Assembly (NCBI GenBank): GCA_002309765.1
Contig: DBXY01000052.1
Coordinates: forward strand, 84,210 to 148,209
Origin: Verrucomicrobia bacterium UBA1200
GTDB lineage: Bacteria; Verrucomicrobiota; Kiritimatiellia; RFP12; UBA1067
Length of the DNA: 64,000 nt
Direction: 5' to 3'
Below, piece after piece: positions 19,736-64,000 of the stretch. The notes under the pieces are model-generated. The model worked only from the letters and a program-made list of their open reading frames with translations, was not told where the DNA came from and ran no database searches. Within the stretch, counting starts at the first letter, position 1. Each line of letters opens with the position of its first letter. Position numbers and translations under genes: made by a program.

Positions 19736-22700
19736 ATGACCGCAGGAAAAATGTTCAACAAAAAGCCGTTTGCAAGGACTGATGAATGGGGATTTGTTGC
19801 GATTATCATAATATGCATGGCGATGATACCTTTAGCGATGTTAGCGGATGGCGTTAAGCGTTCGATGTCGCTTGTGGTAATGGTGGACGGTCTTCGTTCC
19901 GACGCGATCGAATCGGGACACATGCCCAACCTTGAAAAACTGCGCGCCGGAAAATGGCAGAGTGGCTACAAGGCCGCATGGTCGGTGACGGGGCAGATCA
20001 CCCCGGGCTCTGCGCCGTCCTCCGGGCCGAACCACGTCTCTATCGCGACGGGATTCAATCCAGCAACGCACGGTGTGACATCAAACACCATACTTGAAAA
20101 CGGAACGCCGTCCGCTATGCCGACCTGGCTCAAGCGCGTTATTGACGCGAAACCGGGAACGACAGCGCTCTTCGTCTATTCCTGGAGCCCTGACGGTAAT
20201 ATCGCCCCGAGCGAAGGTATCGAGTCCATGGGCGACTCGGACAACGAGAACGCCTCCGCGCTCGCGTCGCGCCTCGCTGCCGCGAACGCGCCGGACGCGA
20301 CCTTGTACTTCATCGACGCGGTCGACCACGCTGGTCACGCTGGGCAATACTATTCTTACACCGACGGATATCTCGCCGCCGTATCGACGGTTGACGGCTA
20401 CATCGGCGCGTGCCTCAACGCGATTGCGTCCCGTCCTACCTTCGCGGACGAGGATTGGCTTATCGCCGTCACTTCCGACCACGGCGGATACGGCACATAC
20501 CATGGACAGATTACCGTGGGCGGCCACGCCCAGACTATTCCGATTGTCATCGCCGGGACGAACATAACGCAGGGCCGCATCCCCGGCACGCCGTACAACT
20601 TCGACGTGGCAGCGTCCGCGCTACACCATTTCGGAATCACGGTTGCCGGGCTTCAGGCCTCGCTGCGCGACGGCGCGGCAGAGACGGTACGGACACTCAA
20701 TGACGGTCTATCCGTATATCTCTCGTTCAACGAATCGATGACCGACAACGCGGTCGTTGGCAGTTCCGTCACGCCGGAAATCGTCGGTTCGCCAACCCTG
20801 GTAGCGAACGGAATGCACGGTAAAAGCATGAGCATCTCCACGAACAACGTCTTGAAGCTCGCCGGTTCAGAATCGCTTTCGTTCGAGGATTCCAACCGCA
20901 GTTTCGCGGCGGTTGTCTGGGCAAAGTTCGCCGACAGGGGCGACGCCGGTGGCGATCCCGTCATCTTCGGCAACAAGTCTTGGTCTGGCAATGTAAAGGG
21001 GATGATTCTCACGTCGAGAAAAAAGGCGGGATGGACCTCCCCCGCATCAGGCGCGGGAGTAGGCTTCAACATTGGTTCCGGTTCAGGGCGCATGGATATC
21101 TATCCGATGCCGACCGAGGGTGCCTCGGCGTGGACCTTCTACGCCGTCACGTATTCCGAGAACGGTACTTACACACTCTACCAGGGGCGTAGCGACGGGA
21201 CACTCTATTGGGCGTCCGGGCAGTTCCCCGCCGCCACGCTGGCGTCGGGTATGCCGTTCTACATTGGGCAAGACGGAACTGGCAATTATTCAAAGCACTT
21301 CGTCGGCGAGGTTGATGACTTCGCGCTTTGGACGCGCGGGCTTTCGCATGACGACATCCGCCGCATCTACGAGTGCGGAAGGGCAGGCATGGAATTGGGC
21401 GACCTGCTTAAGATCGAAGCGAACGACGCGCCCACAATGGAAGTCTCGGTTGCCAACGGCGAGTACACGCTGGAATTCGGCGGACGTCGCACAATGACGC
21501 ACGAACTCTACATTGCCTACGGGGCTGATGATGAGGGCGGGAACAAGCACGCATGGGAATCGTTCGACAAAATCGCCGACATTCCAATGGGCACGACGAC
21601 GCACTCATACACCGTGCCGAATGCGCTGAAAGCCGCGAACGCAAAGTTCCGCTTCTTCCTCATGCAGACGGGCAGCCTTCCATACGCAAAGGAGGTCGAA
21701 TACGCCCATTCGGACGGTAACGCCTGGTTTGACACCGGCATCGCGCCGCGGCGCGACCTCGTCGCGGAGTTTGATGTGCGACTAACCGCCGACAACACGG
21801 AATGGGGTACTGGTAAGACCGACACGCAGACCGCAATCTACGAAAACATATTCGGCGCGTTCTGCGGCACGGACAAACGAGGGAACTACGGCATGTGCCG
21901 TTATCGTAGATCGGGTAACAGCAACCACAACAAGTGGGATCGCGAATTAAACACCGGAAACAACTACCAGTTCGTCGGCAGCTGCGTTAACGACACCGAC
22001 TACCACGTCATGTTCTCCACGACGGATCTCGTCATCAACGGCACATCTTACGGCAGCGGAATCACCGCCGCAAACTTCATCGAAGGCGGATACGGCATTA
22101 CGCTTTACCGCAACTTGAAGAACGGCGCGATCTATGACGACACGATGATCGGCTATTTCAAAACCTTCTTGCTCTACACCCCAAAACGCAAGGTGCGCGA
22201 CTACATGCCCGTTGTCGATGCCGACGGCACGGTGGGAATGTTCGATGCGGTAACGGGGCAATTCCAGACGAGCGAGGACACCGCGCTCACTGCAGGTTCG
22301 GACTGCGATGCCGCGCGCAAGGGATGGGTGCGCTGCGTCTCCGAAAAGGTTTATACTGCGAGCGACACTATTCCTGTCACCGCCACCTACACGGGTTTGG
22401 GGAGCGATCCGCTCGACTTCACCGATTCCGCGAACTGGGTTTGCGAGAATGCATACGGCGTCATGCTCGATGGCGCCGTGCCAACCATCGATACGGCGGT
22501 GACGGTAGCGGGCGAGACGGCGTTCGCAGTGCCAAGCGGTGCGGCAACGCCAGTCTGCGCTAGCATCAGATTCAACAACGCCACGCCAACGAACGCGATG
22601 GATTGGAGCGGACTTGATTTCACCAAAGTGACGGTAAACTCCGTGATTGATCTCAAAGGGCATACCCTTTATCTCGCCGATGAAAACAGCGCGGCATTAA

Positions 22701-23827
22701 GCCAGTTTACCGTGACCGACTCCTCGGACGGCGATCCCGGCATACTGCGCATTTCGGTTGCATCGGGCGCGACACTTGCCAACGAGGGCGTATCGTTGAC
22801 CGGAAACCTTAAACTCAAGAAAGAGGGAGAGGGCACATTCTCAGCCGCGAAGGCGGGTCAGGCATATAGCGGCGGCACGGACGTGGATGCCGGAACCGTT
22901 CTCGTTGGTTCGTCTGGCAACGGGCATTTCGGCAGCGGTATCGTCCATATCCCGACTGGAACGACATACGATGCGTACGGCAATGCCGATTCTTCCGTGA
23001 ACCTTGTTCTCGCTGGCGGAAAGATCGCGAATAACGGCGTTAACGCCACGTTACCATCGACACTAAGAATGACGGAAGATTCAACCATCGAGTTTGCCGT
23101 ATTGCCCGCAAACCACGACATGACCATTCCCGCCGGCGCGGTCTGGAATCTCGGCGGAAAGACGCTTTCCGTTGTGATGGACGGCTACGATCCCGACCTG
23201 CAAGTGAGGGACGTTACGATTTCCAACGGGACCTTCACCGTCACCGTCAACACTTACAACAACGAGACGAAGGGGTATGTGCAAATCTACAAACTGCGCG
23301 GCGGGGACGGGCTGAACCTCGACTTGGGCAACACGTGTCTGCGCCTTTCCTCGGGCGGAGTTGCGACTTCGCAAGTTTGCGACTTCACGGCGAATCCGCC
23401 AGACCAGGCGAATGTGGTGTATAGCTATTCGACGAGCCGGTTGCAGATTTTCGGCACGTATACGCCGCAGACGGTACGCGGATTGAACATGACGATGATG
23501 GACGGCTCGACGTTGGACATTTCGCATTGGTCCGGCGCATACAATTGCGTATTCACAAACCCGAAATACAGCAACAGCGCAAACAACACCCTCTGCGATC
23601 TCCAATTCTCCGCCGGGACGATTACGGTGAACCTCGCGGGACGGACGGACTTGGAGGAAATCGCAACGAGCGAATCGCCATACATCGTCACATGGGAAGA
23701 CGAGCCGGACACAGGAGTGTCATTCGTGCTTGATCCGGGAACTGCGGCCAGAACATTTGAAATTGCCAAAGAATCGACCGGGCTTCGCCTCAAGTACAGC
23801 GGCGGGACAATCATCATTATGCGCTGA
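19736..23827 (+). CDS. giant membrane-anchored/secreted protein with an N-terminal nucleotide-pyrophosphatase/phosphodiesterase (NPP, alkaline-phosphatase-superfamily) domain, a LamG-like lectin domain and C-terminal beta-helical repeats
   Basis: Start taken at the ATG at 19736 (MTAGKMFNKKPF...GFVAIIIICMAMIPLAML anchor). NPP motifs: LVVMVDGLRSD, SSGPNHVSIATG (nucleophile region), SDHGGYG (metal ligands). LamG motif: GEVDDFALWTRGLSHDDIRRIY. The C-terminal third is a Gly/Thr/Asn-rich beta-strand repeat region paralogous to the ORF at 61687. Confidence 0.75.
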   Translation: MTAGKMFNKKPFARTDEWGFVAIIIICMAMIPLAMLADGVKRSMSLVVMVDGLRSDAIESGHMPNLEKLRAGKWQSGYKAAWSVTGQITPGSAPSSGPNHVSIATGFNPATHGVTSNTILENGTPSAMPTWLKRVIDAKPGTTALFVYSWSPDGNIAPSEGIESMGDSDNENASALASRLAAANAPDATLYFIDAVDHAGHAGQYYSYTDGYLAAVSTVDGYIGACLNAIASRPTFADEDWLIAVTSDHGGYGTYHGQITVGGHAQTIPIVIAGTNITQGRIPGTPYNFDVAASALHHFGITVAGLQASLRDGAAETVRTLNDGLSVYLSFNESMTDNAVVGSSVTPEIVGSPTLVANGMHGKSMSISTNNVLKLAGSESLSFEDSNRSFAAVVWAKFADRGDAGGDPVIFGNKSWSGNVKGMILTSRKKAGWTSPASGAGVGFNIGSGSGRMDIYPMPTEGASAWTFYAVTYSENGTYTLYQGRSDGTLYWASGQFPAATLASGMPFYIGQDGTGNYSKHFVGEVDDFALWTRGLSHDDIRRIYECGRAGMELGDLLKIEANDAPTMEVSVANGEYTLEFGGRRTMTHELYIAYGADDEGGNKHAWESFDKIADIPMGTTTHSYTVPNALKAANAKFRFFLMQTGSLPYAKEVEYAHSDGNAWFDTGIAPRRDLVAEFDVRLTADNTEWGTGKTDTQTAIYENIFGAFCGTDKRGNYGMCRYRRSGNSNHNKWDRELNTGNNYQFVGSCVNDTDYHVMFSTTDLVINGTSYGSGITAANFIEGGYGITLYRNLKNGAIYDDTMIGYFKTFLLYTPKRKVRDYMPVVDADGTVGMFDAVTGQFQTSEDTALTAGSDCDAARKGWVRCVSEKVYTASDTIPVTATYTGLGSDPLDFTDSANWVCENAYGVMLDGAVPTIDTAVTVAGETAFAVPSGAATPVCASIRFNNATPTNAMDWSGLDFTKVTVNSVIDLKGHTLYLADENSAALSQFTVTDSSDGDPGILRISVASGATLANEGVSLTGNLKLKKEGEGTFSAAKAGQAYSGGTDVDAGTVLVGSSGNGHFGSGIVHIPTGTTYDAYGNADSSVNLVLAGGKIANNGVNATLPSTLRMTEDSTIEFAVLPANHDMTIPAGAVWNLGGKTLSVVMDGYDPDLQVRDVTISNGTFTVTVNTYNNETKGYVQIYKLRGGDGLNLDLGNTCLRLSSGGVATSQVCDFTANPPDQANVVYSYSTSRLQIFGTYTPQTVRGLNMTMMDGSTLDISHWSGAYNCVFTNPKYSNSANNTLCDLQFSAGTITVNLAGRTDLEEIATSESPYIVTWEDEPDTGVSFVLDPGTAARTFEIAKESTGLRLKYSGGTIIIMR

Positions 23828-24623: not shown

Positions 24624-24625
24624 GG

Positions 24626-35300: not shown

Positions 35301-38300
35301 TTAGCGGACCATAAACAGGGTGCCGCCTAGAATAATCCGGGCGGTCTTCTTATCCGCCGAGAGAACCACCGTGTATTTGTCCGGCAGATTGGTCTCGGCG
35401 AAGGTTCCGCTGATGGTACCCACCGAAGTGGTGGCAAAGGTGTAGGAGCCGCCCGCCAACTGCTCGCTGGTGAATTCCAGCTTGGCATTGGTGAGATCCA
35501 AAGAACCTTCACACTGCAGCAGGTCGCCCTGCGCCACCCGGAGCGTACCGGTGAGCACCGTGTCCAAAGCGAGATTCAACGTGCCGATGGCGTCATCGCC
35601 GCCGGGCGAAAGCACGCCCTTGACGTTCAAGGTGCCATGATAAACCCGGCCGCTACCCGACAGGCCAAACAGCTCGTGGGTGTCGCCGTTCAGGTCAAGC
35701 GTGGCACCGGCCGCGACATCGACGTTACGGACGGTCTCGACAAATTCGCTGGAGAGTTTCGGCAGCGCGTCGGTGCCGAGAATCGCGTTCTCGGTCAACT
35801 GGGCTTCCGACAACCCCGCGTTCCAAACGCGGAACTCGAAATAGGTCGCGCTGGCATCGGGATCGTTAAATTCGGAACGGCCCAACACGCAATGCACCTG
35901 ATTTAGGCTCGCGATGGTCCAGTTGTCATAGTGCCGGGTAGCAATGGCGATGGTCTCGCCGGTCCCAGCGTCCTGCTGGTAGAGGGTGACGTCTGAACCA
36001 CCCGCCCCGTCCGGAATTACCACGCAGCCAAAGTGGTAGATGACACCCTCGGTACACTCGTTAACCGGGATGTTGGCATAGTTGCTGACACAGAAGAAGC
36101 CCTTGCCTGTGACCGGGTCTGCACCGCCGCGCCAGCCCATTGCCAGATAATCGGAAGTGGAAGACCCGAAGGCGAACGCCTGACTCCAAGTGCGAGCGAT
36201 ATTCTGCCGTCCCCAGAACTCGATGGTCACCGGACCCTCGGTCGGCAGAATGTCCGTGCCGAGGTTAATCGACGAAGTACCCTTGTTGCCGCCGGAGGTT
36301 TGCGCCGCCTTGCCGCTGTCGAGGCGAACCTGACCCTGCGGGATCGCGTCGGCTCCGCCGATCACGTCGGCGTAGGAGTTGTTGAACGGCCAGCGGTGGG
36401 TCAAGTAGTTGTTCTGCAACAGTTCGGCGCTAGGCTCATCCGGGAAAACGTTGTCATCTTTAACCGTGTCTTCCTGGAGATAGGCAGGAAGCCGGTCCGG
36501 ACCGTAAAGCACGTTCTGGGTGAGTTCGGCATCGGTGAAAACGCGGTTCCAAACGCGGACTTCGTTGTAGTTCGCCATCGCGTCGGCATCACCCCACTCA
36601 TGGGTAGCCCCGAGGAAGCAGTAATTCAGCGCCCACTCTGAGGTAGTCCAATTACTAACGTTGATGGTTCTGGAACCCAACGTGGCGCCGGTGGCAATAT
36701 CCTTACGAACCGCTACCACCGAAGTATTGCCCGCCCCGTCCGGTTTGATGGTAACCGCATAGTAGTATTCAGCATTAAGGTCAATCGTACCGGTACCGGT
36801 TTCGTTGCCGCTCTTACCCAACACATTGACTGAAGTATTCTGAGTGTCACCACCGGTGCAGAAGGTCATCAAAAGACCATTGTCAGTTTTCGAGCTGAAG
36901 CAGAACATTTTTGACCAGTTTCTCCTCTCGCGCAACGTCGTCCACAACTCGATGGTTACCGGGGTGTTGTCCGAAGGGAGAATGTCACTGCCAAGATTGA
37001 CGTAGCCGCCAAAATGCGTACCCGCGTTCAGGCAAATCTGCTTGCCGTCCTCCGAGTAAGTGCAGTTGCCAACAATGAAGGCGTTTTTGTCGCCGACCAA
37101 ATCTTCGGCAGTGCCGTTGAAGCTCCAGCGGTGGACCAACCCGCCGCTGCCGGAGTGAATGGAGAGCGTACCCTCGGCAACGTTGAGATTTTCGACCGAC
37201 GGCACCGTACCCAAAGCGAGCAACCCGCTGCCGGTTTTGGTGATGGCACCGGTGGAACGACCGTTGGCCACCGGAATGCCGTAAGAATACACGCTGTTGG
37301 CACCGGTATCGATGGTCACGCCGCCGGGACCGATGGAGAGTCCGGCGGAATCATTGCCGTTGAAGAAATTCGCGAACACGCCCGAAGGATCGGGATTTTC
37401 TTCCGTCGCCGGGTTGTACGGAGCGAGAGTGGCGTTGTCAACGTAGAACACCAAGGTGTTGGTGGTGGCGCCGAAGTTGAAGCTGGAAGCCTCCACCCGA
37501 CCGCCGTCCGTAACGTTGAGAATAGCCCCCTGGGTCTCGACCGCATTCGCCAACCGGACAGGGGCGGCGGAGTAAACCCGACCATCGCCGCTAACATTCA
37601 AAGTACCGGTACCCAGCTCGCCGACGATGATGGCGCGACCGGCGTTAGGCTGGGTTAGAGTGCCGCCGGAGATGTCCCAAGTACCAACCGAACCGGCATA
37701 ACGGGCAATGCTAAACCACTCGGAGCAAGACGCAGCACCGCCGGTTTGGAAAACCTCGCCAATGCCGTAGCGGCCGATCTGGAAGTTATTGTCCACCTGC
37801 AAGACACCGTCGTTCAGGCGATAAATACCGTGGCCAACCAGATTGTCGTTATTGTTATATTCGCCGATGGCGGCGTCTTCACCGCGTTTGGTGGTGTCAT
37901 GGACGACGCCGCCGTTTTGGATCAATTCGCCAACGCCGAGGTTGCCGATAATCAGTTGCCCGACTTGAATGTCCGCGCCCGGCTCGACGTAAATTTTTGA
38001 AGTGGTGCCTCCTTCCCATGCGGCGATGAAACGGCCGCCTTCCATGTCAATCGAGCTTCCGCTCTCGAAATGCGACTCGGAACCGGTCCCTGTGAAACCG
38101 GAATAGAACCAACCGCCGGAGGTGGTCAGTTTTACGCCGTCGGTCACATAAAGCTTCGTGGCGTTGTAGATGCGGTAATCATGCGTGTAATAGGTGGCAA
38201 GGGAGTTGGTAAAGTATGCCACGCCGTCATAAATCTGCACCCACTGGTTCGGGGTGGAGATACCGCCGTCGAAACTGATCGTGGCGGGACCGGTCTTGAC

Positions 38301-40323: not shown

Positions 40324-40668
40324 ATGGCTGCGCCTTTTGAATTGACCGGAACGGTTAAAGTGCTGATGGACACGATGACATTCCCCAGCGGTTTCAGCAA
40401 ACGCGAATTTGTGGTCACGTCCGAAGACGAATACCCGCAAGACATTAAATTTGCCTGCGTCAAGGAACGGATATCCCAGCTGGACAAACTACAGCCCGCC
40501 GACCGCGTAAAAGTGAGTTTCCGCATTCGCGGCAACGAGTACCAGGGCCGTTATTTTGTCGACCTTCAGGCTTTCAAGGTGGAAAAACTCGACGCCGACG
40601 GTTCGGCCGTGGAATACGACAATCTGGAGCCGCCGGACGCGTTGCCGGACACGGAGATGCCATTTTAA
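40324..40668 (+). CDS. DUF3127-domain protein
   Basis: FELTGTVKVLMDTMTFPSGFSKREFVVTSEDEYPQDIKFACVKERISQLDKLQPADRVKVSFRIRGNEYQGRYFVDLQAF matches the DUF3127 consensus (ELTGTV..V.TF.SGF.KREFVL.T...YPQ.VKFE..KD......GD.V.VSFN.RGRE..GKYF). Confidence 0.7.
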   Translation: MAAPFELTGTVKVLMDTMTFPSGFSKREFVVTSEDEYPQDIKFACVKERISQLDKLQPADRVKVSFRIRGNEYQGRYFVDLQAFKVEKLDADGSAVEYDNLEPPDALPDTEMPF

Positions 40669-40686
40669 CCTGACGCGACACGACCA

Positions 40687-41559
40687 ATGCCCGACCCGAC
40701 ACAATTGCCGCTGCGCGAGCTGATTCGGCGCGGCGCGGATTTTTTGGAGCGCAAAGGCATTCCTGACGCCGCAACCGTATGCGAGTTGCTGGCGGCGCGA
40801 TTGTGCCAATGCAAGAGGATAGAGCTTCACCGGTCGCTGGACGCCCCGCTTTCCGAACCGAGGGTGGATGCGATGCGCCGGGGCATCCAGCGCGTCGCGG
40901 GCGGAGAACCGGTTCAGTATGTGCTGGGGCAATGGGATTTCCGCCACCTGACCCTTAAATGCGACCGCCGGGCGTTGATCCCCCGGCCGGAAACCGAGGG
41001 GCTGGTGGAACTGGTTCTGAAGTCGCCGCAACTCAACGGGAACCCTAAACCGCTGGTGGTGGATGTCGGGACCGGAACCGGATGCGTCATCTTGAGCATC
41101 GCGCAGGAGCATCCCGGCGGGGTGTATGTCGGGCTGGACATCAGCCCTGACGCGCTGGCGCTGGCCGGAGAAAACGCCAAGCTTACCGGGCTGGAAGACA
41201 AGGTGATGTTCGCGGAATCCGACGGTTGCGGCGAATTCGAACCCGCCAGCGTGGACATTCTGGTCTCCAACCCGCCCTATATTCCTTCGGCGACGGTTGA
41301 CGCGCTCGACCCGTGGATCCGGGACCACGAGCCGCGGTTGGCGCTGGACGGCGGGGCGGACGGACTGAATTTCTACCGCTCGTTTCTGATGGACGCCATT
41401 ATGGTGCTGAAATCCGGCGGCGCGGTTTTCTTTGAAATCGGTGACGACCAAAGCCAGGCGCTGCGGGATATGATGGAGGAGCACGGACTGGAGGAGGTCC
41501 GAATCCTCAAGGATCTGGCCGGACGAGACCGCTACGCCACAGGAGTTATGGCGGGCTGA
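40687..41559 (+). CDS. prmC: release-factor glutamine N5-methyltransferase PrmC/HemK
   Basis: SAM motif VVDVGTGTGCV. Catalytic NPPY (SNPPYIP). About 290 aa. Confidence 0.85.
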   Translation: MPDPTQLPLRELIRRGADFLERKGIPDAATVCELLAARLCQCKRIELHRSLDAPLSEPRVDAMRRGIQRVAGGEPVQYVLGQWDFRHLTLKCDRRALIPRPETEGLVELVLKSPQLNGNPKPLVVDVGTGTGCVILSIAQEHPGGVYVGLDISPDALALAGENAKLTGLEDKVMFAESDGCGEFEPASVDILVSNPPYIPSATVDALDPWIRDHEPRLALDGGADGLNFYRSFLMDAIMVLKSGGAVFFEIGDDQSQALRDMMEEHGLEEVRILKDLAGRDRYATGVMAG

Positions 41560-41578
41560 ACGGGTAGCCCGCAGGAGG

Positions 41579-42430
41579 ATGAAAATGTTTTTTGTCGGAC
41601 CGCATGTTTCAACATCCGGCGGCGTGAGCAACGCCCCGCTGAACGCGAGTTCGGTCGGCGCGACCGGATTCGCCATGTTTGTCAAAAACCAGCGGCAGTG
41701 GACGGCGCCGCCGCTGTCCAGCCAAGAGATTGAATTGTTTAAGCAGCGGTTGCGCGAATGCGGCTACTCGCCCGCCCAGGTGCTGCCGCACGCCGGATAC
41801 CTGATCAATCTCGCCAACCCCGACGCGGAGGCGCACGCGAAATCCATGGCTTCGCTTAAAAACGAGCTGTCGCGCTGCATGGCGCTTGGCCTGACAATGC
41901 TGAACCTGCACCCCGGCAGCCACCTGCGCCAACTCACCCCGGAAGCCGCGTGCGACCGGGTGGCCGAATCAATCAACTCTGCGTTGAAAGACTCTGACGG
42001 GGTAACCATCGTTATTGAAAACACCGCCGGGAGCGGGGGCAACCTTGGCTCGAAATTCTCCGAGCTGGCAAGGATTATCAGCGGCGTGAAAGACCAGCAA
42101 CGCATCGGGGTCTGCATCGACACCGCCCACACCTTCGGTTCGGGCATGGACATCTCCACCCCGGATGGCTTTGACCGCGCCATCGCCGAGTTCGACCGGA
42201 CGGTGGGGTTGCGGTTCCTGCGCGGGATGCATCTGAACGACTCGCGCGCGGCGCTGAACTCGCACGTTGACCGTCACGAATCGCTGGGACTCGGGAAAAT
42301 CGGTTTCGCAACCTTCGCGCATCTGATGGAAGATAACAGGTTCGAAGGCATACCGTTGATTCTGGAGACCCCGGACGAATCCAAATGGGCGGACGAGGTT
42401 CGCCGCTTGCTTGAATGCCGGAGAAGCTGA
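41579..42430 (+). CDS. nfo: endonuclease IV (deoxyribonuclease IV)
   Basis: AGGAGG precedes the ATG. Nfo-family TIM barrel with conserved HxxYLINLA, HPG, IENTAG and CIDTAH metal-binding motifs. Confidence 0.85.
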   Translation: MKMFFVGPHVSTSGGVSNAPLNASSVGATGFAMFVKNQRQWTAPPLSSQEIELFKQRLRECGYSPAQVLPHAGYLINLANPDAEAHAKSMASLKNELSRCMALGLTMLNLHPGSHLRQLTPEAACDRVAESINSALKDSDGVTIVIENTAGSGGNLGSKFSELARIISGVKDQQRIGVCIDTAHTFGSGMDISTPDGFDRAIAEFDRTVGLRFLRGMHLNDSRAALNSHVDRHESLGLGKIGFATFAHLMEDNRFEGIPLILETPDESKWADEVRRLLECRRS

Positions 42431-48793: not shown

Positions 48794-48838
48794 ACAAAAA
48801 AAGCGCCGCGTCTTAATGACGCGGCGCACAATCTTTTT
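48794..48838. terminator. bidirectional Rho-independent terminator shared by the convergent GH20 and 1646-aa giant-protein genes
   Basis: Hairpin GCGCCGCGTCA-tta-TGACGCGGCGC (about 48803-48827). It is flanked by an A7 run upstream and a T5 run downstream, so each strand sees hairpin plus U-tract. Confidence 0.65.
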
Positions 48839-48851: not shown

Positions 48852-51800
48852 TTAACGGAACATAATAAACGTTCCCGACGGCTTGGTGTTGTAAAGATAC
48901 AACATCCCGTTCTCAACCTTAGGCTCGAAGAAATCGCAACTCTCCGTCGATCCGTCGACAGTGTAGCTGACTTCCAACAAATCGGACAGCGCTTCCGCTT
49001 CAAGTTGCTCCAGTCCCAGTGACGGGCAGGCCAGATAAGAGTTGCGTCCGGGTTTGCCTTCAAACGTTACCTTAATCTTGCCGACCTCCGCCAACATATC
49101 CGGATTGCCGTTAATGAAGGTAACGCCGCTAAGTTGAGCGTCCATAGCCTTAGCGGTCAATTCATACGTGCCGCCCTTGAACGCATATAGCCCGTTGAGG
49201 ATACCGGTTCCGGAAAGCGTTCCAGTGATTCCGCACGGCGTAGCCGCACGGTTTTGCAACTGAGAACCCTCGTTCAGCACGACTTCCCCGCAAATACGGC
49301 CGTAAGGCGTTGCAGTAATCCGGAGCGTCCGCTCGTCAAACGGAGTCGCCACGCCGCCGGGAACGGTGTAGGCTAGCGCGTTGCCGCGGCCGGAGGAGAT
49401 TCCCCCGCCGTAGTCGTAGGTACGGATCTGGAAAGCATGCCAGCCGGCAGTCAGTTCAGCTGTCCCCTCCACGGCAACGTTGTGCACCTCGGACGAAAAG
49501 ATGGTCTCTCCATCGATCTTCAAACTGATACGGTCGTCATACACACCATCAAACGTCCACTCGCCGGCAATTTCCGGCTCGACGTAGAACCAGCCGGAAA
49601 GCTCGCAGGCGGCGAGTTTACCCGGTTCCCAAGAAGTACTGTGAATAACCTGCAAAGAGGGCAACACCTCGGTTGTATCGTATTCCGGATCAACCCACTC
49701 GTCTTTGTAACCCGAGCCAAGCGCATGGCGGGTCAAGCGAACCGAACTGGCCGGACGCATCTTGAACGCTGCGGTGCTGAACGGTTCATAATCCGCAGCG
49801 GAGGTTGAAGAAGTTCCGCCGTAGCAGTATCCAAGCGCCATCTTCTTGTTTTTCCACTCCGTGACGGCCGGCCCTGCGCCACCGCCAAGATCCATTGCCG
49901 AAATCCGGAAATTGTGCCAACCGGCGGAGAGAGTCACGGATTTCGTCCCTACCCCGTTCCATGTCGTGTTCTCGCAAGCCAATTCGCCGTCAATCCACAT
50001 GGTCAACTTATCATCATAAGTACAGGCGAAGGTGTAAACGCCCGCCTTCTCCACCTCGAAATCGCCTTCGATCCGGTAGTTGGTGTAAAGCGGGGTCAGG
50101 GGCGCAGTGATCAGCTCCTGAATATCATTGGCAAACCATACGGGAGGAATGTCGGAGCGTGACCCGAAATCCACATGGTTGGGGGAAGCGGTCTCGTCAT
50201 TCAACATCGCCGCGAAGACGTTAAGTCCAGCAAAGTGTTCATAGTCGCCGATGTTAATTGTGGCGAAAGTATTCTCCGCAAGCGTTAAACCGCCGCCAAT
50301 GCCGGCCAAGTTCTCGAGCATATTGGCACCGGTGTTTTCAACGGTTATCGATCCGTTTAGACCGCCTTGCACCGCATTAGTGGCGGCAAAGGTGCCTGCG
50401 CCCTTGATAATTATGTTACCCGCACCCTGAATCGCGGTATGCCAAAGCGTATCACCGTTACCGACGTCAAAGGTGAAGGCCGTATCCTTCTCGGCGAACG
50501 GGCCGTTGAAGGTCCCCCACGTCTCGAAGGCGGTGTGCAGGTACTTACGGATGCCCCAATTGTCAGTGCCAAGCGCGGCATCCGCCCAGTTGCTAGGAGT
50601 AGCGATACCAGGATCATCGGTGTTCCAACCCTTGGCCGTACCGCCCGCCAACCAAACCTGCGGGCAAATCGGATAACCGCGCCGCGAGGTGAAGCCGTTC
50701 GGGCCTACCCGCAGCGTACCACCGTTCATCACAAACAATTCGCGGCCAATGGAGTTGGTTTTGTAGTAGTTGAACTGGTAACGGATGTCGATGCCCTTGA
50801 CGTCAAGGTTACCCGAATTCAGCCACAACTCAGCGTAGTGCGTATCGTAACCGTCGCGGATAACGTTGTCAACCACCGCGAGATAACCGCCGTCGATCAC
50901 CATCTTGTGGACGTTATCGGTGTTGCCGCTCCAGCGTCCGAGGATCACCTCGTTCCGCGCGATGAGCTGCGACCCCTCGTCCAGCGTCAAGGTCGCGCTG
51001 GCCGGGCTGGCCTGAATGTCGCCCAGATAGACGTTCGTAACCGTAATCGAGGTACCGTTGCCCAAAACCGCATAGCCGGGGGCGTTCGGCGAACCGGTTC
51101 CCATACGGAGCGAGCCGACCTCCATCACCGTGTCCTCGATCCTGGCCACCGCCGTGCCGCCCGCCGCGAGGGAACAGGGGACGAACGCGCCGGCGCCGCT
51201 AAGTTGAATGTTGCGGTAGGTAGTGTCGGCAACCGGTGCCAAACCCAGCATACCCGATGCCTCGGTAACGACCACAGGCATCTTGAACTCCGTGCCCGAT
51301 GACGTCTCGTGGTCGCCGTACAGGACACCGCCGTTGGGCGCGTTCGCGTCGGTGCCGGCCACGTTTAGGGTATCATACGCGATGTTGCTGGCCAGGTAGT
51401 GCCAGCCAAGGGTGACCTTCGCTTCGCCGTCGCCGGCGAGTCCACCACGCAGGATGAGACCGCTGTCGCTGCCACCGCCGGAAAGTTTTAAAGATCCCGG
51501 AGAAGTGACCGTGACAGTCGAGGCGACCGGGGCGTAACCCGATGTACAGCTCAACACATTTTCCGCGTTAATAGCGGATACCGGGACCGTGAACGGATAT
51601 GTAAGCGCGTAGAAGCGGAACTGCCCATGGTCGAGAATCAGCGATTTCCAATTCTCGCCCGCAAGCGAATCACGCTCAAAACCGGCTATGGTGTTATTGA
51701 TGACTTTGACCGTCCCAACGTTGATGTCCGCATAGACCATCATAAGCGAATCGATGTTTTCCTGACCAGTGATCGTCAGCGTGGCGTCCGCCGGACCGGT

Positions 51801-53792
51801 TATGAAGGGGCGTCCGGCATTGGCGCTTCCGTTAACCGACTGCATGTGGAAACGGTCGCCATCCGGACTTCCGACCGTGGCGTCACCCTCCATCACAATA
51901 CCATAGAGCTGGGGGTTCGTTGAGTACTGATTCTCGTTGTAGATCGTCCCTTTGCCGTTCTGGCCCTCGCCGAGGATGTGGAAGATTTTGGAGTGCGTCT
52001 GAAGATGATGGTCGTACTGGTTGGTATAGGCAAGGTCGAAGGAGGCGTTCCGGACATAGACCGGCGAACTGGACGAACCGAGCGCGAAGTGCTGGGCATC
52101 CGGACCAAGGCGCATTACGCCACCAGAAACCGTGATGCTCTCCGGCGCGGCGAAACCGTCGCCGTCGATCGTCACGGTGCCGGAACCGGACTTGGTGACG
52201 GTCGGAGTGTCAATCTTCGCGCCCGTGATAGTGTAATCCTTGTTACCGGAAAATTCCAACCCGCTTGCCGCCACGGCTTCCGGGACATTGACCGTACTGA
52301 CGAAATTATTCTCCGCTCCGTCGAATTTGGCCGTATAATCGCTCAGGAACGAGACCTGGGTTCCGACATACAAGCCGTTTCCGATCATCCATGCCTCGGA
52401 GGCCCAGGTGTCAGTCGCGTTCTGCGGCCGCCACAGGACGGAGGTCGCGTACCAGAAGGTACCGGTGGGAGAGAAAGTGGTCTCGCCGAGGGAGTTAATT
52501 GCCTTGAAGGCGACATAATACTTCTGGCCGCTGGTCAGGGAAGACAGGTTTGCGGTGAGCGCGTTAGCTTCGGTGTAGGTTCCGACATTCACCGGCAGTG
52601 TGCCCTCCATTGCTTCAGTCGTACCCCAAACCAGAGAGACGGAAACGGAGGTTACGTCATCGCCGAGCTCCGAAAGGGTTCCGGAAACGGTGGCGGAGTT
52701 CGGGTTCAGAGTCACGCCGTCAAAGGTGAGCGTGGTAGGAACAAGGTCGGAAGTGCTCTTGACATCACCGGCGACAACGAACGCCGCGTTCGCCACCGAG
52801 TCGTACTCGGCCTTCAGCCAGTCCGCGGTCGCCGCGCCGTTGAAAATACGCCACTCATCCAGCTTGCCCTGAAGGTGGTCGCCGTGGTTCGACATATTCC
52901 CGTAATTGCCAAAGCCCCATGTGTAACCGGGATCGGCAATGGCGGGGATGGAGTGGGAGTAGTGGAGATTGCCATTGTAGTAACTGGTACCGGTCGTGTT
53001 GTCGTAAACCACGGCAACGTTCACCCACTCGTCAAGCGAGTAGGTCCAGCTCACCTTGTTGTGCCCGCTCGTTCCGCTCGTAAAGGAGAGTTCGTTGCCG
53101 TTCTCATTCAGAATCAAGAACCCGGCAGCACCCCATGACGACATCGCGCCGAACATGATGTGGGTCTGCTTTTTGGCAAAGGTCATCCAACCGGAGATGG
53201 TAAAAATGGTAGAATCCGTCAACTTCGCCAGCGGATTGGTAAGATGAATGCCGGCGTTATCATTGTTGCGGTCCGGAATCTCGTACCCCACGCCAAGTTT
53301 ACCGTTGGGAATAACGGCGGTGTTGCTTCCGACAAACACGTCGAGACCGCTTGCGGAATCTTTGGGCGTCGAGCCGCCATGCACCACCGCCGCATAACGG
53401 ATCCATACCGCCGAGGGCGTGTTTTCCGGCGCCGTAGCCGAGCCGTAATACATTTTTATCTGCGTGGCGGTTCCGGAAAGCGCTGGAACCCTGACCCAGA
53501 CCAGCGACTCGCCGTCGGGATCCCACGTGTCAATTTCATAGGGGAGCGGTTCCCCGGCGGAATCGGTAAAACAGAGGTCGGTGCCGTCCGCCTTAAGGTC
53601 GGCATAACTGAAACCCGTTATCGCGGATGAGAGCCGCACCAGCACGGGAAAGTCCACCAAATCCGAAGCCCCCTGATAGCCCGATAGGGTTAATGTGCAC
53701 TTCTTCGCGTATAAAGAAGCATCTATCGCGGCGCAAGACAACGCCAACGAAAACGCGGCGACACCCGCAGTCAAAAACATACAACGCTTCAT
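48852..53792 (-). CDS. giant secreted protein: N-terminal DUF2341-like domain, LamG-like domain, long beta-helical repeat region and two C-terminal PA14 domains
   Basis: Signal peptide MKRCMFLTAGVAAFSLALSCAA (possible lipobox). N-terminus LTLSGYQGASDLVDFPVLVRL...QIKMYYGS resembles DUF2341. Two PA14-like segments (GDFEVEKAGVYTFACTYDDKLTMWIDGELA...AGWHNFRISAMDLGGG and SGWFYVEPEIAGEWTFDGVYDDRISLKIDGETIF...LTAGWHAFQIRTYDYGGG). Ends ...PSGTFIMFR*. Confidence 0.8.
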   Translation of the reverse strand: MKRCMFLTAGVAAFSLALSCAAIDASLYAKKCTLTLSGYQGASDLVDFPVLVRLSSAITGFSYADLKADGTDLCFTDSAGEPLPYEIDTWDPDGESLVWVRVPALSGTATQIKMYYGSATAPENTPSAVWIRYAAVVHGGSTPKDSASGLDVFVGSNTAVIPNGKLGVGYEIPDRNNDNAGIHLTNPLAKLTDSTIFTISGWMTFAKKQTHIMFGAMSSWGAAGFLILNENGNELSFTSGTSGHNKVSWTYSLDEWVNVAVVYDNTTGTSYYNGNLHYSHSIPAIADPGYTWGFGNYGNMSNHGDHLQGKLDEWRIFNGAATADWLKAEYDSVANAAFVVAGDVKSTSDLVPTTLTFDGVTLNPNSATVSGTLSELGDDVTSVSVSLVWGTTEAMEGTLPVNVGTYTEANALTANLSSLTSGQKYYVAFKAINSLGETTFSPTGTFWYATSVLWRPQNATDTWASEAWMIGNGLYVGTQVSFLSDYTAKFDGAENNFVSTVNVPEAVAASGLEFSGNKDYTITGAKIDTPTVTKSGSGTVTIDGDGFAAPESITVSGGVMRLGPDAQHFALGSSSSPVYVRNASFDLAYTNQYDHHLQTHSKIFHILGEGQNGKGTIYNENQYSTNPQLYGIVMEGDATVGSPDGDRFHMQSVNGSANAGRPFITGPADATLTITGQENIDSLMMVYADINVGTVKVINNTIAGFERDSLAGENWKSLILDHGQFRFYALTYPFTVPVSAINAENVLSCTSGYAPVASTVTVTSPGSLKLSGGGSDSGLILRGGLAGDGEAKVTLGWHYLASNIAYDTLNVAGTDANAPNGGVLYGDHETSSGTEFKMPVVVTEASGMLGLAPVADTTYRNIQLSGAGAFVPCSLAAGGTAVARIEDTVMEVGSLRMGTGSPNAPGYAVLGNGTSITVTNVYLGDIQASPASATLTLDEGSQLIARNEVILGRWSGNTDNVHKMVIDGGYLAVVDNVIRDGYDTHYAELWLNSGNLDVKGIDIRYQFNYYKTNSIGRELFVMNGGTLRVGPNGFTSRRGYPICPQVWLAGGTAKGWNTDDPGIATPSNWADAALGTDNWGIRKYLHTAFETWGTFNGPFAEKDTAFTFDVGNGDTLWHTAIQGAGNIIIKGAGTFAATNAVQGGLNGSITVENTGANMLENLAGIGGGLTLAENTFATINIGDYEHFAGLNVFAAMLNDETASPNHVDFGSRSDIPPVWFANDIQELITAPLTPLYTNYRIEGDFEVEKAGVYTFACTYDDKLTMWIDGELACENTTWNGVGTKSVTLSAGWHNFRISAMDLGGGAGPAVTEWKNKKMALGYCYGGTSSTSAADYEPFSTAAFKMRPASSVRLTRHALGSGYKDEWVDPEYDTTEVLPSLQVIHSTSWEPGKLAACELSGWFYVEPEIAGEWTFDGVYDDRISLKIDGETIFSSEVHNVAVEGTAELTAGWHAFQIRTYDYGGGISSGRGNALAYTVPGGVATPFDERTLRITATPYGRICGEVVLNEGSQLQNRAATPCGITGTLSGTGILNGLYAFKGGTYELTAKAMDAQLSGVTFINGNPDMLAEVGKIKVTFEGKPGRNSYLACPSLGLEQLEAEALSDLLEVSYTVDGSTESCDFFEPKVENGMLYLYNTKPSGTFIMFR

Positions 53793-59371: not shown

Positions 59372-61312
59372 CTATTTCGCTTTTGGAAGCCATGTCTGGA
59401 CGTGCTTGCCATTCCAACCATTGACGGAGGCGTAGTCGCACATGGTGATGAATCCGTCCTTGGTGGGGACGCGGAACTCAAGCCGGTGCGCCGGCGACTG
59501 GGGTACGATCCGTTCAACGGCCACGGTACCGTCCGCGCCCGCTTTGATCGCGACCGGGGCGGCATAGTTCGGATCCGTGTTCTCGTCGCGAGAAAGCGCG
59601 ATGGGACCCCACGTAACCGCCTGGAACGGGGCGGAGGCGTGGTTGCGTCCGACCGGCGCGTCGAGCAGGCGCGCCTTGAAGTCGAATGTCACGGCGACCT
59701 TGTCGCCCGCACGCCATGCGCGCGCCAGTTTCAGGTACTTCCCGGGGATAACCTCGCTGACTGGCTCGCCGTTGATAGTAACGGTTGTCTTTTCGCTCCA
59801 TGCCGGGATGCGCAGGGAGATTGTGAAGGATTCCTCGCGCGCGGGCGAAACGGTCATGCGCCACCCGCCCATGTCGAGCAAGTCGCCTTCCGCCGCTAAG
59901 CGAATCTCGCCGCCCGACGCGGTTTTTGCAACAGCCGAGCCGGCGTTATACAGGTTCACGACCGGACCATCCTGCGCCTGCATCACCGCCACGAAGGGGA
60001 TGTACGCAAGGCCCATCGGCCCGTTCAAATTGCAACAGGTGACGGGGCCGCTCTCGAACGTCCAGCCCCACCCCTTGTTCGTCACCTTTTCGCCGTTGAG
60101 CAGGTTCACGTAACTGAACCCGTCACCGTTCGGCTTCATCGCGCCAAGCAGCCCGTTGTAAACGTAGAGTTCAATGGCGTCCGCCGCCCGCACGTCGCCG
60201 GTCAGGCGCAGAACCTGGCTTGCGTACTTCATCCACGTCACGCCTACGCACGTCTCCATCATCCGCGTCATGTCGGGGTTCGACTGCTCGGCGGCCGTGT
60301 TGTCCCACGCCTCGCCGAACCAGCGCGGCCAGTGCGGGTAGTTTCCGCCGCCGTTGCCAACGATCGTGATTTCGTGTCGCAGCACGCTGTCGAAATACTT
60401 GACCACCGCCTCGCTCGCCGACGTATCACCCGTCACGCGGCTCCATTCGGCAAGACCCTCAAAAACGGATGTCATCTCGTAAGCCTTCGGGTACGGCTCG
60501 CCCATCCGCCACGGCATCGTACCCGTGCGGGCCTGCTCAAAGAGGTTGCTCCCTTTAGCGCCGCCGCACTCGATAATGTAGCGCGCGAAGTCGAGGTAGT
60601 CCTTGCGTCCGGTTAGCTTGTACAAGCGCATGAACGGTTCCAGCAGCGACGACGATTCGATACAGTTCGGGCTCCACCCGATCTCGCGGATATCGCGCTT
60701 CGGCGCGGGGCCGACCTGACGGATGATGCAGTCCGCCTGGCGCTGGAGCGAGGCCAGCACCTCCGGACGGCGTTCCACCCATTCGTAGTAGTCCTCCAGC
60801 CCCAGCATCACGTACTTCCGCTCCCACAGGTCGCCGCAGTGCGGATGCGAATGGCCATCGCCGCCGGGCTGCAGCTCATCCGGCACGCAGCTGACGCTGC
60901 CGTTCGGCCGCTCCGTCGCGAGGATGTCCGCGACTGCGGTGTCCAGCACCGCCTTTAACCCGGGGTCGCGCAGATGGCGGTACTGCATGGCCCCGGACCG
61001 CACGAATTTCCCCCACATCTCGCCGAGCGCGAACTGGGGCCGCCCCTCCCTGAAGAATGCCGCGAATTCATGGTACGGCACGTTCCCCTTGTGCCAATTC
61101 GCGACGCTCTTTTCAATCGGCACCTCCAACCCGCCCGAAAGTCTAACGGCACCGGCGGGAAGCGGCTCCATCACGTCTCGCACCGCACACTTCACCTGTT
61201 CGGCCGGCGCCGCAGGGGTGGTGTCGGCATATACCGCGCCGACCATAACAGCGGCGGACAGAAGGATTGCGAACGATTTTCCTCTACGGGATTCTTTCTT
61301 CACGGCATTCAC
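59372..61312 (-). CDS. secreted GH127-family (DUF1680) beta-L-arabinofuranosidase-like glycoside hydrolase
   Basis: Signal peptide MNAVKKESRRGKSFAILLSAAVMVGAVYA. The DUF1680/GH127 (alpha/alpha)6 domain carries a conserved Cys-rich zinc region (CCNLNGPMG). Confidence 0.7.
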   Translation of the reverse strand: MNAVKKESRRGKSFAILLSAAVMVGAVYADTTPAAPAEQVKCAVRDVMEPLPAGAVRLSGGLEVPIEKSVANWHKGNVPYHEFAAFFREGRPQFALGEMWGKFVRSGAMQYRHLRDPGLKAVLDTAVADILATERPNGSVSCVPDELQPGGDGHSHPHCGDLWERKYVMLGLEDYYEWVERRPEVLASLQRQADCIIRQVGPAPKRDIREIGWSPNCIESSSLLEPFMRLYKLTGRKDYLDFARYIIECGGAKGSNLFEQARTGTMPWRMGEPYPKAYEMTSVFEGLAEWSRVTGDTSASEAVVKYFDSVLRHEITIVGNGGGNYPHWPRWFGEAWDNTAAEQSNPDMTRMMETCVGVTWMKYASQVLRLTGDVRAADAIELYVYNGLLGAMKPNGDGFSYVNLLNGEKVTNKGWGWTFESGPVTCCNLNGPMGLAYIPFVAVMQAQDGPVVNLYNAGSAVAKTASGGEIRLAAEGDLLDMGGWRMTVSPAREESFTISLRIPAWSEKTTVTINGEPVSEVIPGKYLKLARAWRAGDKVAVTFDFKARLLDAPVGRNHASAPFQAVTWGPIALSRDENTDPNYAAPVAIKAGADGTVAVERIVPQSPAHRLEFRVPTKDGFITMCDYASVNGWNGKHVQTWLPKAK

Positions 61313-61345
61313 CCTCTCTTTCCTTCCTTAAGACTCCTCTTGCCC

Positions 61346-61418
61346 TAAAAGATCGTTTGACCACTCTTGCCCAAAGTCAAACGTATGTTATCACTTTTAT
61401 CCGTTATACGCAATCCGA
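61346..61418. promoter_or_regulatory. two inverted-repeat candidate operator sites upstream of the giant-protein gene at 61687
   Basis: GTTTGAC-N14-GTCAAAC (about 61346-61373) and ACGCAAT-CCGATT-ATTGCGT (about 61399-61418), lying 270-340 nt upstream of the start codon. Confidence 0.3.
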
Positions 61419-61686
61419 TTATTGCGTTTATTGATGGGCGAGGAGACGTTTTCCAAGTCAGCTTTGTAAACGGCCGGCCCGCAAATGGCGGTTTACGGAG
61501 ACGACGTTATAACGGCGGTTTTATGGCAAATCGCGGTCGCGATGCGCCCGCTAGCGCCACATTTTACCCCCCAAAAACCGCGAAAAATCGATTTTTGGCG
61601 AAAATATAACCTTTTTTTTGTGAAAAGATTATTTCCTTTTCCCATGATTTGTGGTATTATTAGTTTTGTTGAAAGGAGATTCGGTT

Positions 61687-64000
61687 ATGAAGAATGCTAA
61701 AATGACGAGGATTGGCCACACATTTTTTAAACGCGTCACACGCTCGCATGGCGTGTGGAAGGGTTTGTCGATTGCCACCGCCTTCATCTTTATGCGGTTC
61801 AGCGTTTTTGCGATGAATGAGACGGTCAGCGAGGATCTGGTGCTGACCAACGACTGGGCGGTGGACGGCACCCTAACGGTGGAGGAAGGCGTGACGGTCG
61901 ATCTGAACGGCCATACGCTCACGGTGCGGGGCATAGCCGGGGACGGCGCGATCGTCTGCACGAGCGGCGACACCGGCATCCTTTGCATCGATTCCGACTC
62001 CAACCTGACCAACGACTCGGTGGGGTTGTTCGGAAACCTTCAGCTGGTAAAAACCGGAAGCGGGACCTTCACGGCGGCAAGGAAGTACCAGGGTTATACC
62101 GGCGGGACGAAAATCGACGGTGGCGTATTCAAGTACAATTCCGCCGGTTCGCTCGGACAGGCCGGCAGCGCGAATCTCGTTAAGAACGGGGATTTCGAAA
62201 GCGCGTCTATCTCGGGCAAATACGCATACACGACCGGCGCCGAGTGGTCGGCAAACCCATACTGGACCTGCGACGGTGTGAACGCCGGGCTTGACAAAGG
62301 CAAGAACTCGAACACCATGTTTGAGAGTGGTATCGATGTCGGGACATACGCCGCCTATCTGCGAACCGGGAATAACGGAACAACTGATTTCGGGGACGGA
62401 TGGTTCGAGCAAACGATAACCTGTTTCATACCGGGAATCTACCGGCTGGGTTTTGTGAGCATCCCACCGAGCTTGTCCGCGCGCAGGGGCGCATCCGTCA
62501 CCGTTACTCTGACAGACACTGTCAGTAACGCCGGGATTTTCACCTTTACCTATTCGGCCGGCTACACCGCCAAAACCGCGATCGATGTGCCAATGATAAC
62601 GATAGCCAAAGCCGGAACCTATGCCCTGCGTTTCTCCCAGAAGGGCAGCGACAAAATTCAGGTAACCGGATTCGATGACATCGTCTTGGAACAGGTGTCT
62701 GACCGCAACCTGATCCGGAACGGGACGTTTGACGAGGCGGATGTCGGATCGCCGGGAAGCACCGTATGGGCCACGTCACCGGAATGGACGGCAAACCCAT
62801 ACTGGACGGCGTCCGGAGGCGATGACAGCTCTTACGCCGGTCTTATACCCAACGGTGCCGGCGGATACATCGCCCCATCGACGCCGGTTGGCAAATACGC
62901 GGCAGTTCTGAGAACCACTGCAAATGGCAGCGAAGTGTATATCCGCCAGGCGTTCAGCGTCGCCAAGCCGGGGATCTATCAGTTGCGATTCTCGTATATC
63001 GCCTGCTACCTCTATTCCAATACCAGAGGATCGACGGTGACGGCGAACATCCTCCACGGGGATGAGGTGATAACCGTCGGGGCTGTCGTGGCGTCGGATA
63101 CGGGCCGGACGGGTTTCGAGACCACTCTGGTCCTACCCGAAGCGGGGGATTACATTTTGGAATTCCGCCAAACTCCCGGCAACGGCACCCGAATCACGAT
63201 GCTCGACGACGTTATACTCCTCCCCATGGTGGATGTGACGGTTAACGAGAGCGGAACGATTGATTTTAACTGTAAGTCGAAACATGCGGACTGCCAGTTT
63301 ATCCTGGCCGGCGGGATGCTGTATAATCCGGGACCGACCGTTCTGAAGTATCTGTTTTTGACGGCGGACTCGACTATGAGTGTCATCAACCATTCGGGAA
63401 TGGGGGCTGACGAAGGCGGCGCAATTATTGATCTGGGCGGGCACAACCTTTCGATAGGGATCCCCTCGGGAATATTCCACCGTCTTTTTAAAACCGCAAT
63501 CCTCAACGGAACCATCACCACTTCCGGAGCCGGAACATTGTACCTCGGTGTTGACGGCGGATATGTGGCGGCGACGAATCTCGACCTCCATGCCAGTTGC
63601 GCGCTAAACATCATTAACGACGTCTCCTTGCGCGATTATAAGACAACCTACACGGGTAACTCCAACTCGGGGACGGCGGAAATGACGGTGAGCGGCACAT
63701 TTACGCCACAAACCGATTGCTTCTACGGCTGTACCCTTCAGGACGGGGTCACGATTGACTTTTCGGAGCGGGAAACCACGCTGAGTGTCGTCTCGTCGTT
63801 CACCTCCGGAAGCAACACGTTGTCATTTGCGCCGTACGCGACAATCATGGTCGATCTGGCCGGAAACGGATCCCGTTTTCTGGCCAGCGCCGGAAACCCC
63901 TATCTTATCAAATGGGATACTGAACCAGCGGACGTAACTTTTGTTTTGGATGAAGCGACGAGGAATAACCACTTCATCATCAAACCGGATCAAACCGGAT
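61687..64000 (+). CDS. giant secreted beta-helical repeat protein with two tandem DUF642-like carbohydrate-binding modules (5' part of at least 771 codons; continues past the window end)
   Basis: Absent from the ORF track (no stop in the window). Hand translation from the ATG at 61687 (AAAGGAG RBS) gives MKNAKMTRIGHTFFKRVTRSHGVWKGLSIATAFIFMRFSVFA... and runs without a stop to position 64000. The N-terminal framework (HTLTVRGIAGD...GNLQLVKTGSGTFTAARKYQGYTGGTKIDGGVF) is paralogous to the 22600-22960 region of the gene at 19736. Two internal repeats: NLVKNGDFESA...ANPYWT...GTYAAYLRT...PGIYRLGF and NLIRNGTFDEA...ANPYWT...GKYAAVLRT...PGIYQLRF. Confidence 0.7.
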   Translation, partial: MKNAKMTRIGHTFFKRVTRSHGVWKGLSIATAFIFMRFSVFAMNETVSEDLVLTNDWAVDGTLTVEEGVTVDLNGHTLTVRGIAGDGAIVCTSGDTGILCIDSDSNLTNDSVGLFGNLQLVKTGSGTFTAARKYQGYTGGTKIDGGVFKYNSAGSLGQAGSANLVKNGDFESASISGKYAYTTGAEWSANPYWTCDGVNAGLDKGKNSNTMFESGIDVGTYAAYLRTGNNGTTDFGDGWFEQTITCFIPGIYRLGFVSIPPSLSARRGASVTVTLTDTVSNAGIFTFTYSAGYTAKTAIDVPMITIAKAGTYALRFSQKGSDKIQVTGFDDIVLEQVSDRNLIRNGTFDEADVGSPGSTVWATSPEWTANPYWTASGGDDSSYAGLIPNGAGGYIAPSTPVGKYAAVLRTTANGSEVYIRQAFSVAKPGIYQLRFSYIACYLYSNTRGSTVTANILHGDEVITVGAVVASDTGRTGFETTLVLPEAGDYILEFRQTPGNGTRITMLDDVILLPMVDVTVNESGTIDFNCKSKHADCQFILAGGMLYNPGPTVLKYLFLTADSTMSVINHSGMGADEGGAIIDLGGHNLSIGIPSGIFHRLFKTAILNGTITTSGAGTLYLGVDGGYVAATNLDLHASCALNIINDVSLRDYKTTYTGNSNSGTAEMTVSGTFTPQTDCFYGCTLQDGVTIDFSERETTLSVVSSFTSGSNTLSFAPYATIMVDLAGNGSRFLASAGNPYLIKWDTEPADVTFVLDEATRNNHFIIKPDQTG

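Follow-up and report, generated by a model that had tools for sequence, protein, structure and literature searches.

A C-terminal heptapeptide on large mosaic beta-helix proteins of rumen Kiritimatiellae, a candidate sorting signal

Kiritimatiellae are widespread, almost uncultured polysaccharide degraders of the rumen, the hindgut and sediments. We have analyzed a stretch of 64,000 nucleotides of Verrucomicrobia bacterium UBA1200 (contig DBXY01000052.1; hereafter, the window) that contains four genes, named here A to D, encoding large modular proteins that are predicted to be secreted. Three of these proteins, and a close homolog of the fourth, share a short C-terminal tail. The nearest DNA belongs to a goat-rumen Kiritimatiellae metagenome-assembled genome (MAG), with 94% identity, and further matches come from roe deer and other ruminant MAGs. 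The GC content is even along the whole window, which is an ordinary chromosome stretch of an uncultured rumen Kiritimatiellae bacterium. The open reading frames (ORFs) of the four genes lie where a preliminary description of this DNA had placed them, with translations that agree, and their start codons are those of orthologs with 91-97% identity (P0001, P0108, P0228 and P0348). The coordinates of all features are given in Table 1. That description had proposed one family of four paralogs of 1400-1650 amino acids, a size that fits B and C but neither A nor D. P0348, which is 97% identical to D, has 785 amino acids, so only 14 codons of D should lie beyond the end of the window.

Table 1. Features of the four genes and their surroundings (positions are those of the window; aa, amino acids)
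Feature	Position	Strand	Remarks
Gene A, 1363 aa	19736..23827	+	signal peptide, NPP-type phosphodiesterase, LamG, middle region of ~370 aa, beta-helix module, tail
Middle region of A, ~370 aa (aa 551-929)	21386-22522	+	without Pfam or PDB sequence match
C-terminal right-handed beta-helix module of A, A/D type (aa 930-1356)	22523..23803	+	
C-terminal heptapeptide tail of A	23804..23824	+	GTIIIMR, then stop codon; read from DNA
Gene B, 1595 aa	35301..40088	-	signal peptide, long PATR-type beta-helix region, two LamG, tail
Tail of B	35304-35324	-	GTLFMVR
Intrinsic-terminator-like hairpin directly 3' of the B stop codon	35255..35287	-	14-bp stem with 11 GC pairs, then T7
Gene C, 1646 aa	48852..53792	-	signal peptide, DUF2341, LamG, fn3-like, beta-helix, two PA14, C-terminal domain, tail
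Central beta-helix of C (aa 440-1180)	50253..52475	-	
Tail of C	48855-48875	-	GTFIMFR
Hairpin between the convergent GH20 gene and gene C	48803-48827		perfect, 10 bp, GC-rich, T-runs on both strands; resembles a bidirectional terminator
Gene D, 771 of ~785 aa inside the window	61687..64000	+	signal peptide, A/D helix parts, two DUF642-like modules; tail expected just past the window end
Layout of D			aa 56-161, N-terminal part of the A/D module; aa ~163-517, DUF642-like pair; aa 517-771, rest of the module
Doubtful remnant, 82-aa ORF	9545..9793	+	'...NGLYLERPGMVIIVK', then 21 more codons; tail-like 'PGMVIIVK' only

A, B and C end in GGTIIIMR, GGTLFMVR and SGTFIMFR, respectively, and the D homolog P0348 in GGTVILIR, in agreement with the common style of C-terminus that had been noticed at the outset. 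The tail always lies right at the stop codon, with the consensus G(-7) [TLFM](-6) x(-5) [ILV](-4) [ILF](-3) [VIL](-2) [R>K>Q](-1), and it is absent from the remaining ~146 ORFs of the window with 100 amino acids or more. Among the homologs that we collected for the four proteins, it is present in 90 of 107 for A, in 110 of 120 for C, in 131 of the 150 representatives retrieved with D as query, and in about 28 homologs of B. In all, the tail was seen on some 330 homologs whose upstream parts are unrelated; in the homolog clusters, all members with taxon names are Kiritimatiellae. Among the tailed homologs, ~70-97% keep Gly at -7, the figure varying by family, and the distance between the motif and the C-terminus is constant. 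The segment just upstream differs by subfamily (the end of a LamG followed by a Pro/Ala linker, 'DIGCYE...', or 'GL[KR]L' in the A/D module), and the tail is marked as an autonomous element. In the confident structural model of A, the terminal R stands seven residues past the last structured strand, and the last 10 residues have a mean predicted local distance difference test (pLDDT) value of ~50 and form no secondary structure.

In neighboring loci, the tail is found essentially only on large secreted proteins, often on several adjacent ones. It marks only a subset of the exported proteins, since the GH43 gene at 7243-9012 (+) has a signal-peptide-like N-terminus and lacks the tail, ending in ...RFHRRETPE. 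Besides, contig L006 carries two consecutive genes, at 3925-9954 and 10001-14749. The first encodes a 2009-residue protein without Pfam domains that ends in the tail PGFFLILR, and the second, directly downstream, encodes the B homolog P0109, which ends in NITIFVR, with Asn replacing Gly at -7. Tail-bearing genes can hence stand in tandem.

We scanned the last 60 amino acids of A, B and C against the 2025 Pfam and June 2026 NCBIfam libraries at E <= 10 and obtained no match in either. PEP-CTERM, GlyGly-CTERM, LPXTG, type IX C-terminal domains and autotransporter barrels were considered as identities for the tail and rejected, none of them being matched in these scans. In the case of PEP-CTERM (PF07589/TIGR02595), the tail contains only 5-6 hydrophobic residues and one basic residue. 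The classical autotransporter barrel (PF03797) was found neither in these C-terminal segments nor anywhere in the four proteins, and the tail ends in R, not in an aromatic residue. Regarding type IX cargo, neither Por_Secre_tail nor CHU_C (PF18962/TIGR04183 and PF13585/TIGR04131) was detected in the last 60 amino acids. A search of the literature, including the K. glycovorans genome paper, returned no description of the tail, and an earlier one may have been missed.

The relations among the four proteins were examined by all-vs-all BLASTP, which aligned A and D in two collinear segments (A956-1067 with D56-161, E 2e-11, and A1089-1349 with D537-771, E 3e-12) and gave no match with E < 0.01 for any pair involving B or C. 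A profile of 25 sequences covering the last 434 amino acids of A (alignment A1) matched D with an hhalign probability of 99.4% (E 2.7e-21); against B and C it recovered only a PATR-like unit of ~40 amino acids, with a probability below 5%. The A/D alignments quoted in the preliminary description are therefore real, and the four-way paralogy that it proposed does not extend to B and C. Judged by these comparisons, A and D are true paralogs over a C-terminal beta-helix module of ~430 amino acids, and B and C are independent architectures. With D as query against 1.84 billion cluster representatives, the A/D module was retrieved (E <= 1e-3) from 691 clusters at 50% identity, whose proteins range from 160 to 3050 amino acids, and it forms the C-terminal part of ~100 A homologs, in at least three architectures. 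The module is mobile and constitutes a very large Kiritimatiellae family in its own right.

The AlphaFold2 model of the A/D module is all-beta, with a pLDDT of 91.9 and a predicted template modeling score (pTM) of 0.90, and Foldseek gave weak matches only. PATR matches in A and D reach 17-18 bits, below the threshold, and the 'GNLKLKKEGEGTF...YSGGT' stretch highlighted in the preliminary description is one such unit; C has no PATR match. A right-handed beta-helical fold of the passenger type was found in A/D and in C. Given that PATR repeats form right-handed beta-helices, B probably carries this fold too. The beta-helix is thus common to all four proteins as a fold, not as a shared sequence framework, which exists for A and D only. 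Modular secreted proteins made of a beta-helix plus variable lectin-like or enzymatic modules, as anticipated, are a known kind: they are giant beta-helix/LamG surface proteins of the Planctomycetota-Verrucomicrobiota-Chlamydiota (PVC) type, ordinary for this bacterial group.

Regarding the individual modules, the domains first assigned from the sequence alone were recovered for the most part, with the exception of the second LamG of B and the DUF642 of D, which stay below the threshold. The Phosphodiest domain of A (PF01663) spans aa 46-250, with 62.5 bits against a cut-off of 23, and is followed by a Laminin_G_3 match at aa 386-541. The catalytic-type motifs VDG50, SGPNH, DHAGH197 and SDHG247, of the metal-ligand and nucleophile type, are all present, and by these motifs A is apparently an active NPP-type enzyme. 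Its likeness to the NPP branch of the alkaline phosphatase superfamily consists in this match and these motifs; it differs by the fusion to LamG, to the ~370-residue region, to the beta-helix and to the tail. A sequence search of the PDB with the middle region gave nothing useful, and relatives of A with ~1040 amino acids lack this region, their LamG being joined straight to the beta-helix module. The A ortholog P0001, from a Kiritimatiellae MAG and 94% identical, is annotated as 'alkaline phosphatase family protein'; 'DUF2341 domain-containing protein' and the name given to the B ortholog (below) are equally generic. In at least seven clusters of A relatives (P0036, P0060-P0062, P0073, P0085 and P0087), the gene call starts with an ECF sigma-70 domain at the N-terminus, continues with a single transmembrane helix and a linker, and runs in frame into an internal Met and signal peptide, which is followed by the NPP-LamG-beta-helix-tail body. 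Such joins could be genuine fusions of a sigma/anti-sigma-like kind, or else gene calling has repeatedly read through.

B passes the family thresholds for PATR, with 53.7 bits for PF12951 (cut-off, 27) and 55.9 bits for TIGR02601, and also matches the T5SS/PEP-CTERM-associated repeat below the threshold. Its first LamG is a Laminin_G_3 at aa 1027-1189, and the second (aa ~1269-1431) is a full-length match of 20 bits. Its ortholog P0108, 91% identical, is annotated as 'autotransporter-associated beta strand repeat-containing protein'. Upstream of gene B, at 40152-40124, lies a promoter-like site that supports the ATG at 40088 as the start. In C, Pfam identified DUF2341 (aa 69-124), Laminin_G_3 (aa 180-325) and PA14 (aa 1239-1316). 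A second PA14 copy aligns to the first with E 2e-12, and the fn3 match is below the threshold. An ortholog that is 93% identical exists (P0228). The N-terminal DUF2341-LamG-fn3-like region of C was found in 120 homologs, and the remainder of the protein in only 6. In D, DUF642 (PF04862) reaches 25.0 bits for the whole protein against a cut-off of 27, and 17.3 and 14.8 bits for the single copies, which are duplicates with 33% identity to each other (E 2e-22). The module residues on either side of this pair belong to a loop in the A model; hence, D can be described as an A-type helix that carries two lectin-like modules within one of its loops. For both C and the inserted modules of D, sequence searches of solved structures gave nothing useful.

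In relatives of B, known anchors occupy the place of the tail. Close homologs of B carry the tail, and the more distant PATR homologs, which belong to Verrucomicrobiota, Planctomycetota and Proteobacteria, have other C-termini: about 40 of 120 have a PEP-CTERM, and others have an autotransporter barrel at the position of the tail. This choice of anchor at the same position is our main argument for a sorting or retention role of the tail. Our proteins share with the PATR/PEP-CTERM proteins of Verrucomicrobiota and Planctomycetota a signal peptide, a long beta-helix, frequent LamG and PA14 modules, a very large size and a small C-terminal element past the last rung of the helix, and B is a homolog of them at the sequence level. 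Unlike them, they have no PEP motif, no transmembrane segment of ~20 residues and no Arg cluster, but a G followed by five hydrophobic residues and R, K or Q; besides, A, C and D, unlike B, fall below the PATR threshold. Among the distant B homologs, a third recurrent C-terminus was seen in verrucomicrobial PATR proteins, which close with '...P..F[FY]R[LV]..P' as their last residues (e.g. P0138, P0161, P0172, P0178 and P0219), which is neither a PEP-CTERM nor an autotransporter barrel.

Two other secretion systems offer partial parallels. With the passengers of type Va autotransporters (UpaB, Hap, pertactin, Ag43 and IcsA), the proteins have the right-handed beta-helical fold in common, but they have no C-terminal 12-stranded translocator barrel, and the identity is only 7-15%. 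The parallel with the type IX cargo of Bacteroidota is one of concept, since there, too, a single kind of C-terminal element is found on numerous large proteins, glycan-active ones or adhesins, that are otherwise unrelated, and type B C-terminal domains have a comparable 'G-x-V-x-L-I-R' at the end of their last strand. However, type IX cargo belongs to another phylum, and its C-terminal domain folds into a beta-sandwich of 70-100 amino acids, in contrast to the approximately seven conserved residues described here.

With a probability that we put at roughly 0.6, A to D are Sec-exported mosaic surface or extracellular proteins tagged by a previously undescribed C-terminal sorting or retention signal. 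In this reading, each protein is a right-handed beta-helix stalk of the autotransporter-passenger type bearing its own modules: an NPP enzyme and a LamG in A, two LamG in B, DUF2341, a LamG and two PA14 in C, and two DUF642-like beta-sandwiches set in a loop in D. After export, presumably by Sec, a periplasmic or outer-membrane factor would recognize the heptapeptide at the free C-terminus, probably by taking it up as an extra beta-strand, and would then direct the protein across the outer membrane or hold it there. The tail would in this way fill the role that PEP-CTERM/exosortase or an autotransporter barrel plays in homologous beta-helix proteins of other phyla. The outcome would be display on the surface or release, and at the surface the lectin-like modules may bind glycans on which the enzyme module would act by phosphodiester hydrolysis, serving polysaccharide degradation. 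The bolder version, in which Kiritimatiellae, and perhaps some Lentisphaerae, use the heptapeptide as a new minimal signal for sorting or surface retention, read by a dedicated machine and replacing both PEP-CTERM/exosortase and autotransporter barrels, is in our opinion slightly less probable than its negation.

Several observations weigh against reading the tail as a sorting signal. A signal-peptide-like N-terminus is present in 325 of the 364 tailed proteins that start with Met (the rest being mostly truncated gene calls), but signal peptides were scored by eye and with a crude heuristic, which was also positive in 137 of 155 non-tail homologs. The 5-6 hydrophobic residues are too few for a membrane-spanning helix, which makes the tail unlike all described sortase-type signals. 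Nor is the terminal basic residue strictly required, since the goat-rumen ortholog of A, 94% identical, ends in GTIIIIL instead of GTIIIMR (ATA CTC for ATG CGC; L001:11280-11304 against 23804-23827 of the window). Finally, neither the window nor loci L001-L007 show a conserved neighbor gene or a candidate sorting enzyme beside the tailed genes.

One could argue that the tail is not a sorting signal but a structural or assembly element, such as a sticky strand for oligomers or a lattice, a folding cap or a tag for a protease that reads C-termini, and that the proteins cross the outer membrane by a type II route that recognizes folded features. We regard this as a serious rival, even if an unlikely one. 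The tail is indeed very short and strongly beta-prone, and none of the neighborhoods examined contained a sortase-like partner. Against this, the domains that carry it are unrelated and the linkers in between vary, the monomer model shows it as disordered, and homologs have bona fide sorting or translocation elements at the same position; moreover, that the motif keeps a fixed distance from the free C-terminus suggests that a partner recognizes it.

A more specific version of the sorting proposal is that the tail mimics, or is a relic of, the beta-signal (the terminal beta-strand) of an outer-membrane barrel, and that BamA, TamA or a dedicated Omp85-type protein binds it by strand augmentation, A to D being passengers of a split type-V-like pathway. 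Their stalks have autotransporter-passenger folds, and the barrels of some distant B homologs end in 'GGTLILNY' or 'NGTLILNY', close to tails such as 'GGTLFMVR' and 'ANGTVMLLR'. This resemblance is a lead only, as it concerns a short motif and comes without statistics, and, unlike known beta-signals, the tail neither alternates in hydrophobicity nor ends in an aromatic residue. No partner barrel gene is evident in the window either. We rate this possibility somewhat below the structural one.

The initial idea of a local cluster of four paralogs, with a common scaffold, swapped cargo and cellulosome-like display, is the least probable of all: A and D do share a scaffold, with other modules inserted in D, all four proteins have beta-helices, lectin-like modules and the tail, and they resemble cellulosome components in being modular extracellular proteins with carbohydrate-binding modules from a fibre-degrading gut organism with carbohydrate-active enzyme (CAZyme) genes nearby, but, apart from one PATR-like unit, B and C align neither with A/D nor with one another, D has half the proposed size, Pfam scans of whole proteins and segments detected no cohesin, dockerin or scaffoldin-type module, and the genes have housekeeping genes in between and their own terminators.

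The genomic setting agrees with independent genes. The CAZyme genes found in between A to D (GH106, GH43, GH20, GH2 and GH127) confirm the interleaving with glycoside hydrolases that had been reported, but housekeeping genes are equally interspersed, including those for GlnRS, TyrRS and tRNA and rRNA modification enzymes. Since these genes are intermixed and a strong terminator stands after both B and C, the four genes do not form one operon or island and appear to be separate transcription units. As to the high density noted from the start, the four genes jointly occupy ~25% of the bases of the window. Considering that the A/D module alone accounts for so many clusters, this density most likely reflects a large lineage-wide expansion and not a local cluster. 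A genome-locus scan with a single protein as query returned four genome loci.

The proteins themselves are ordinary, and the part of interest is the tail, whose function we only infer. If it is a sorting tag, seven residues would suffice as a rule for predicting the surface proteins of these bacteria proteome-wide, straight from metagenomic data. There would then be a new sorting pathway to look for, with phylogenetic profiling as a way to find it, and the heptapeptide could serve as a very small tag for surface display; the tail would also define a secretome of hundreds of giant beta-helix/lectin proteins. Even if it is not, the annotation is corrected to four mosaic proteins, two of them paralogous, that form no cellulosome-like family.

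Two minor ORFs of the window deserve comment. The ORF at 9545-9793 had been taken for a decayed fragment of the family, but its best BLAST match has an E of 0.6-1, which is not significant, and blastx against all 500+ collected homologs gave no significant match; it may still be a family remnant. The ORF at 40489-41685 (-) would encode an Arg-rich, low-complexity protein of 398 amino acids without Pfam match; it is probably a spurious antisense frame, the true gene likely being the one at 40687-41559 (+).

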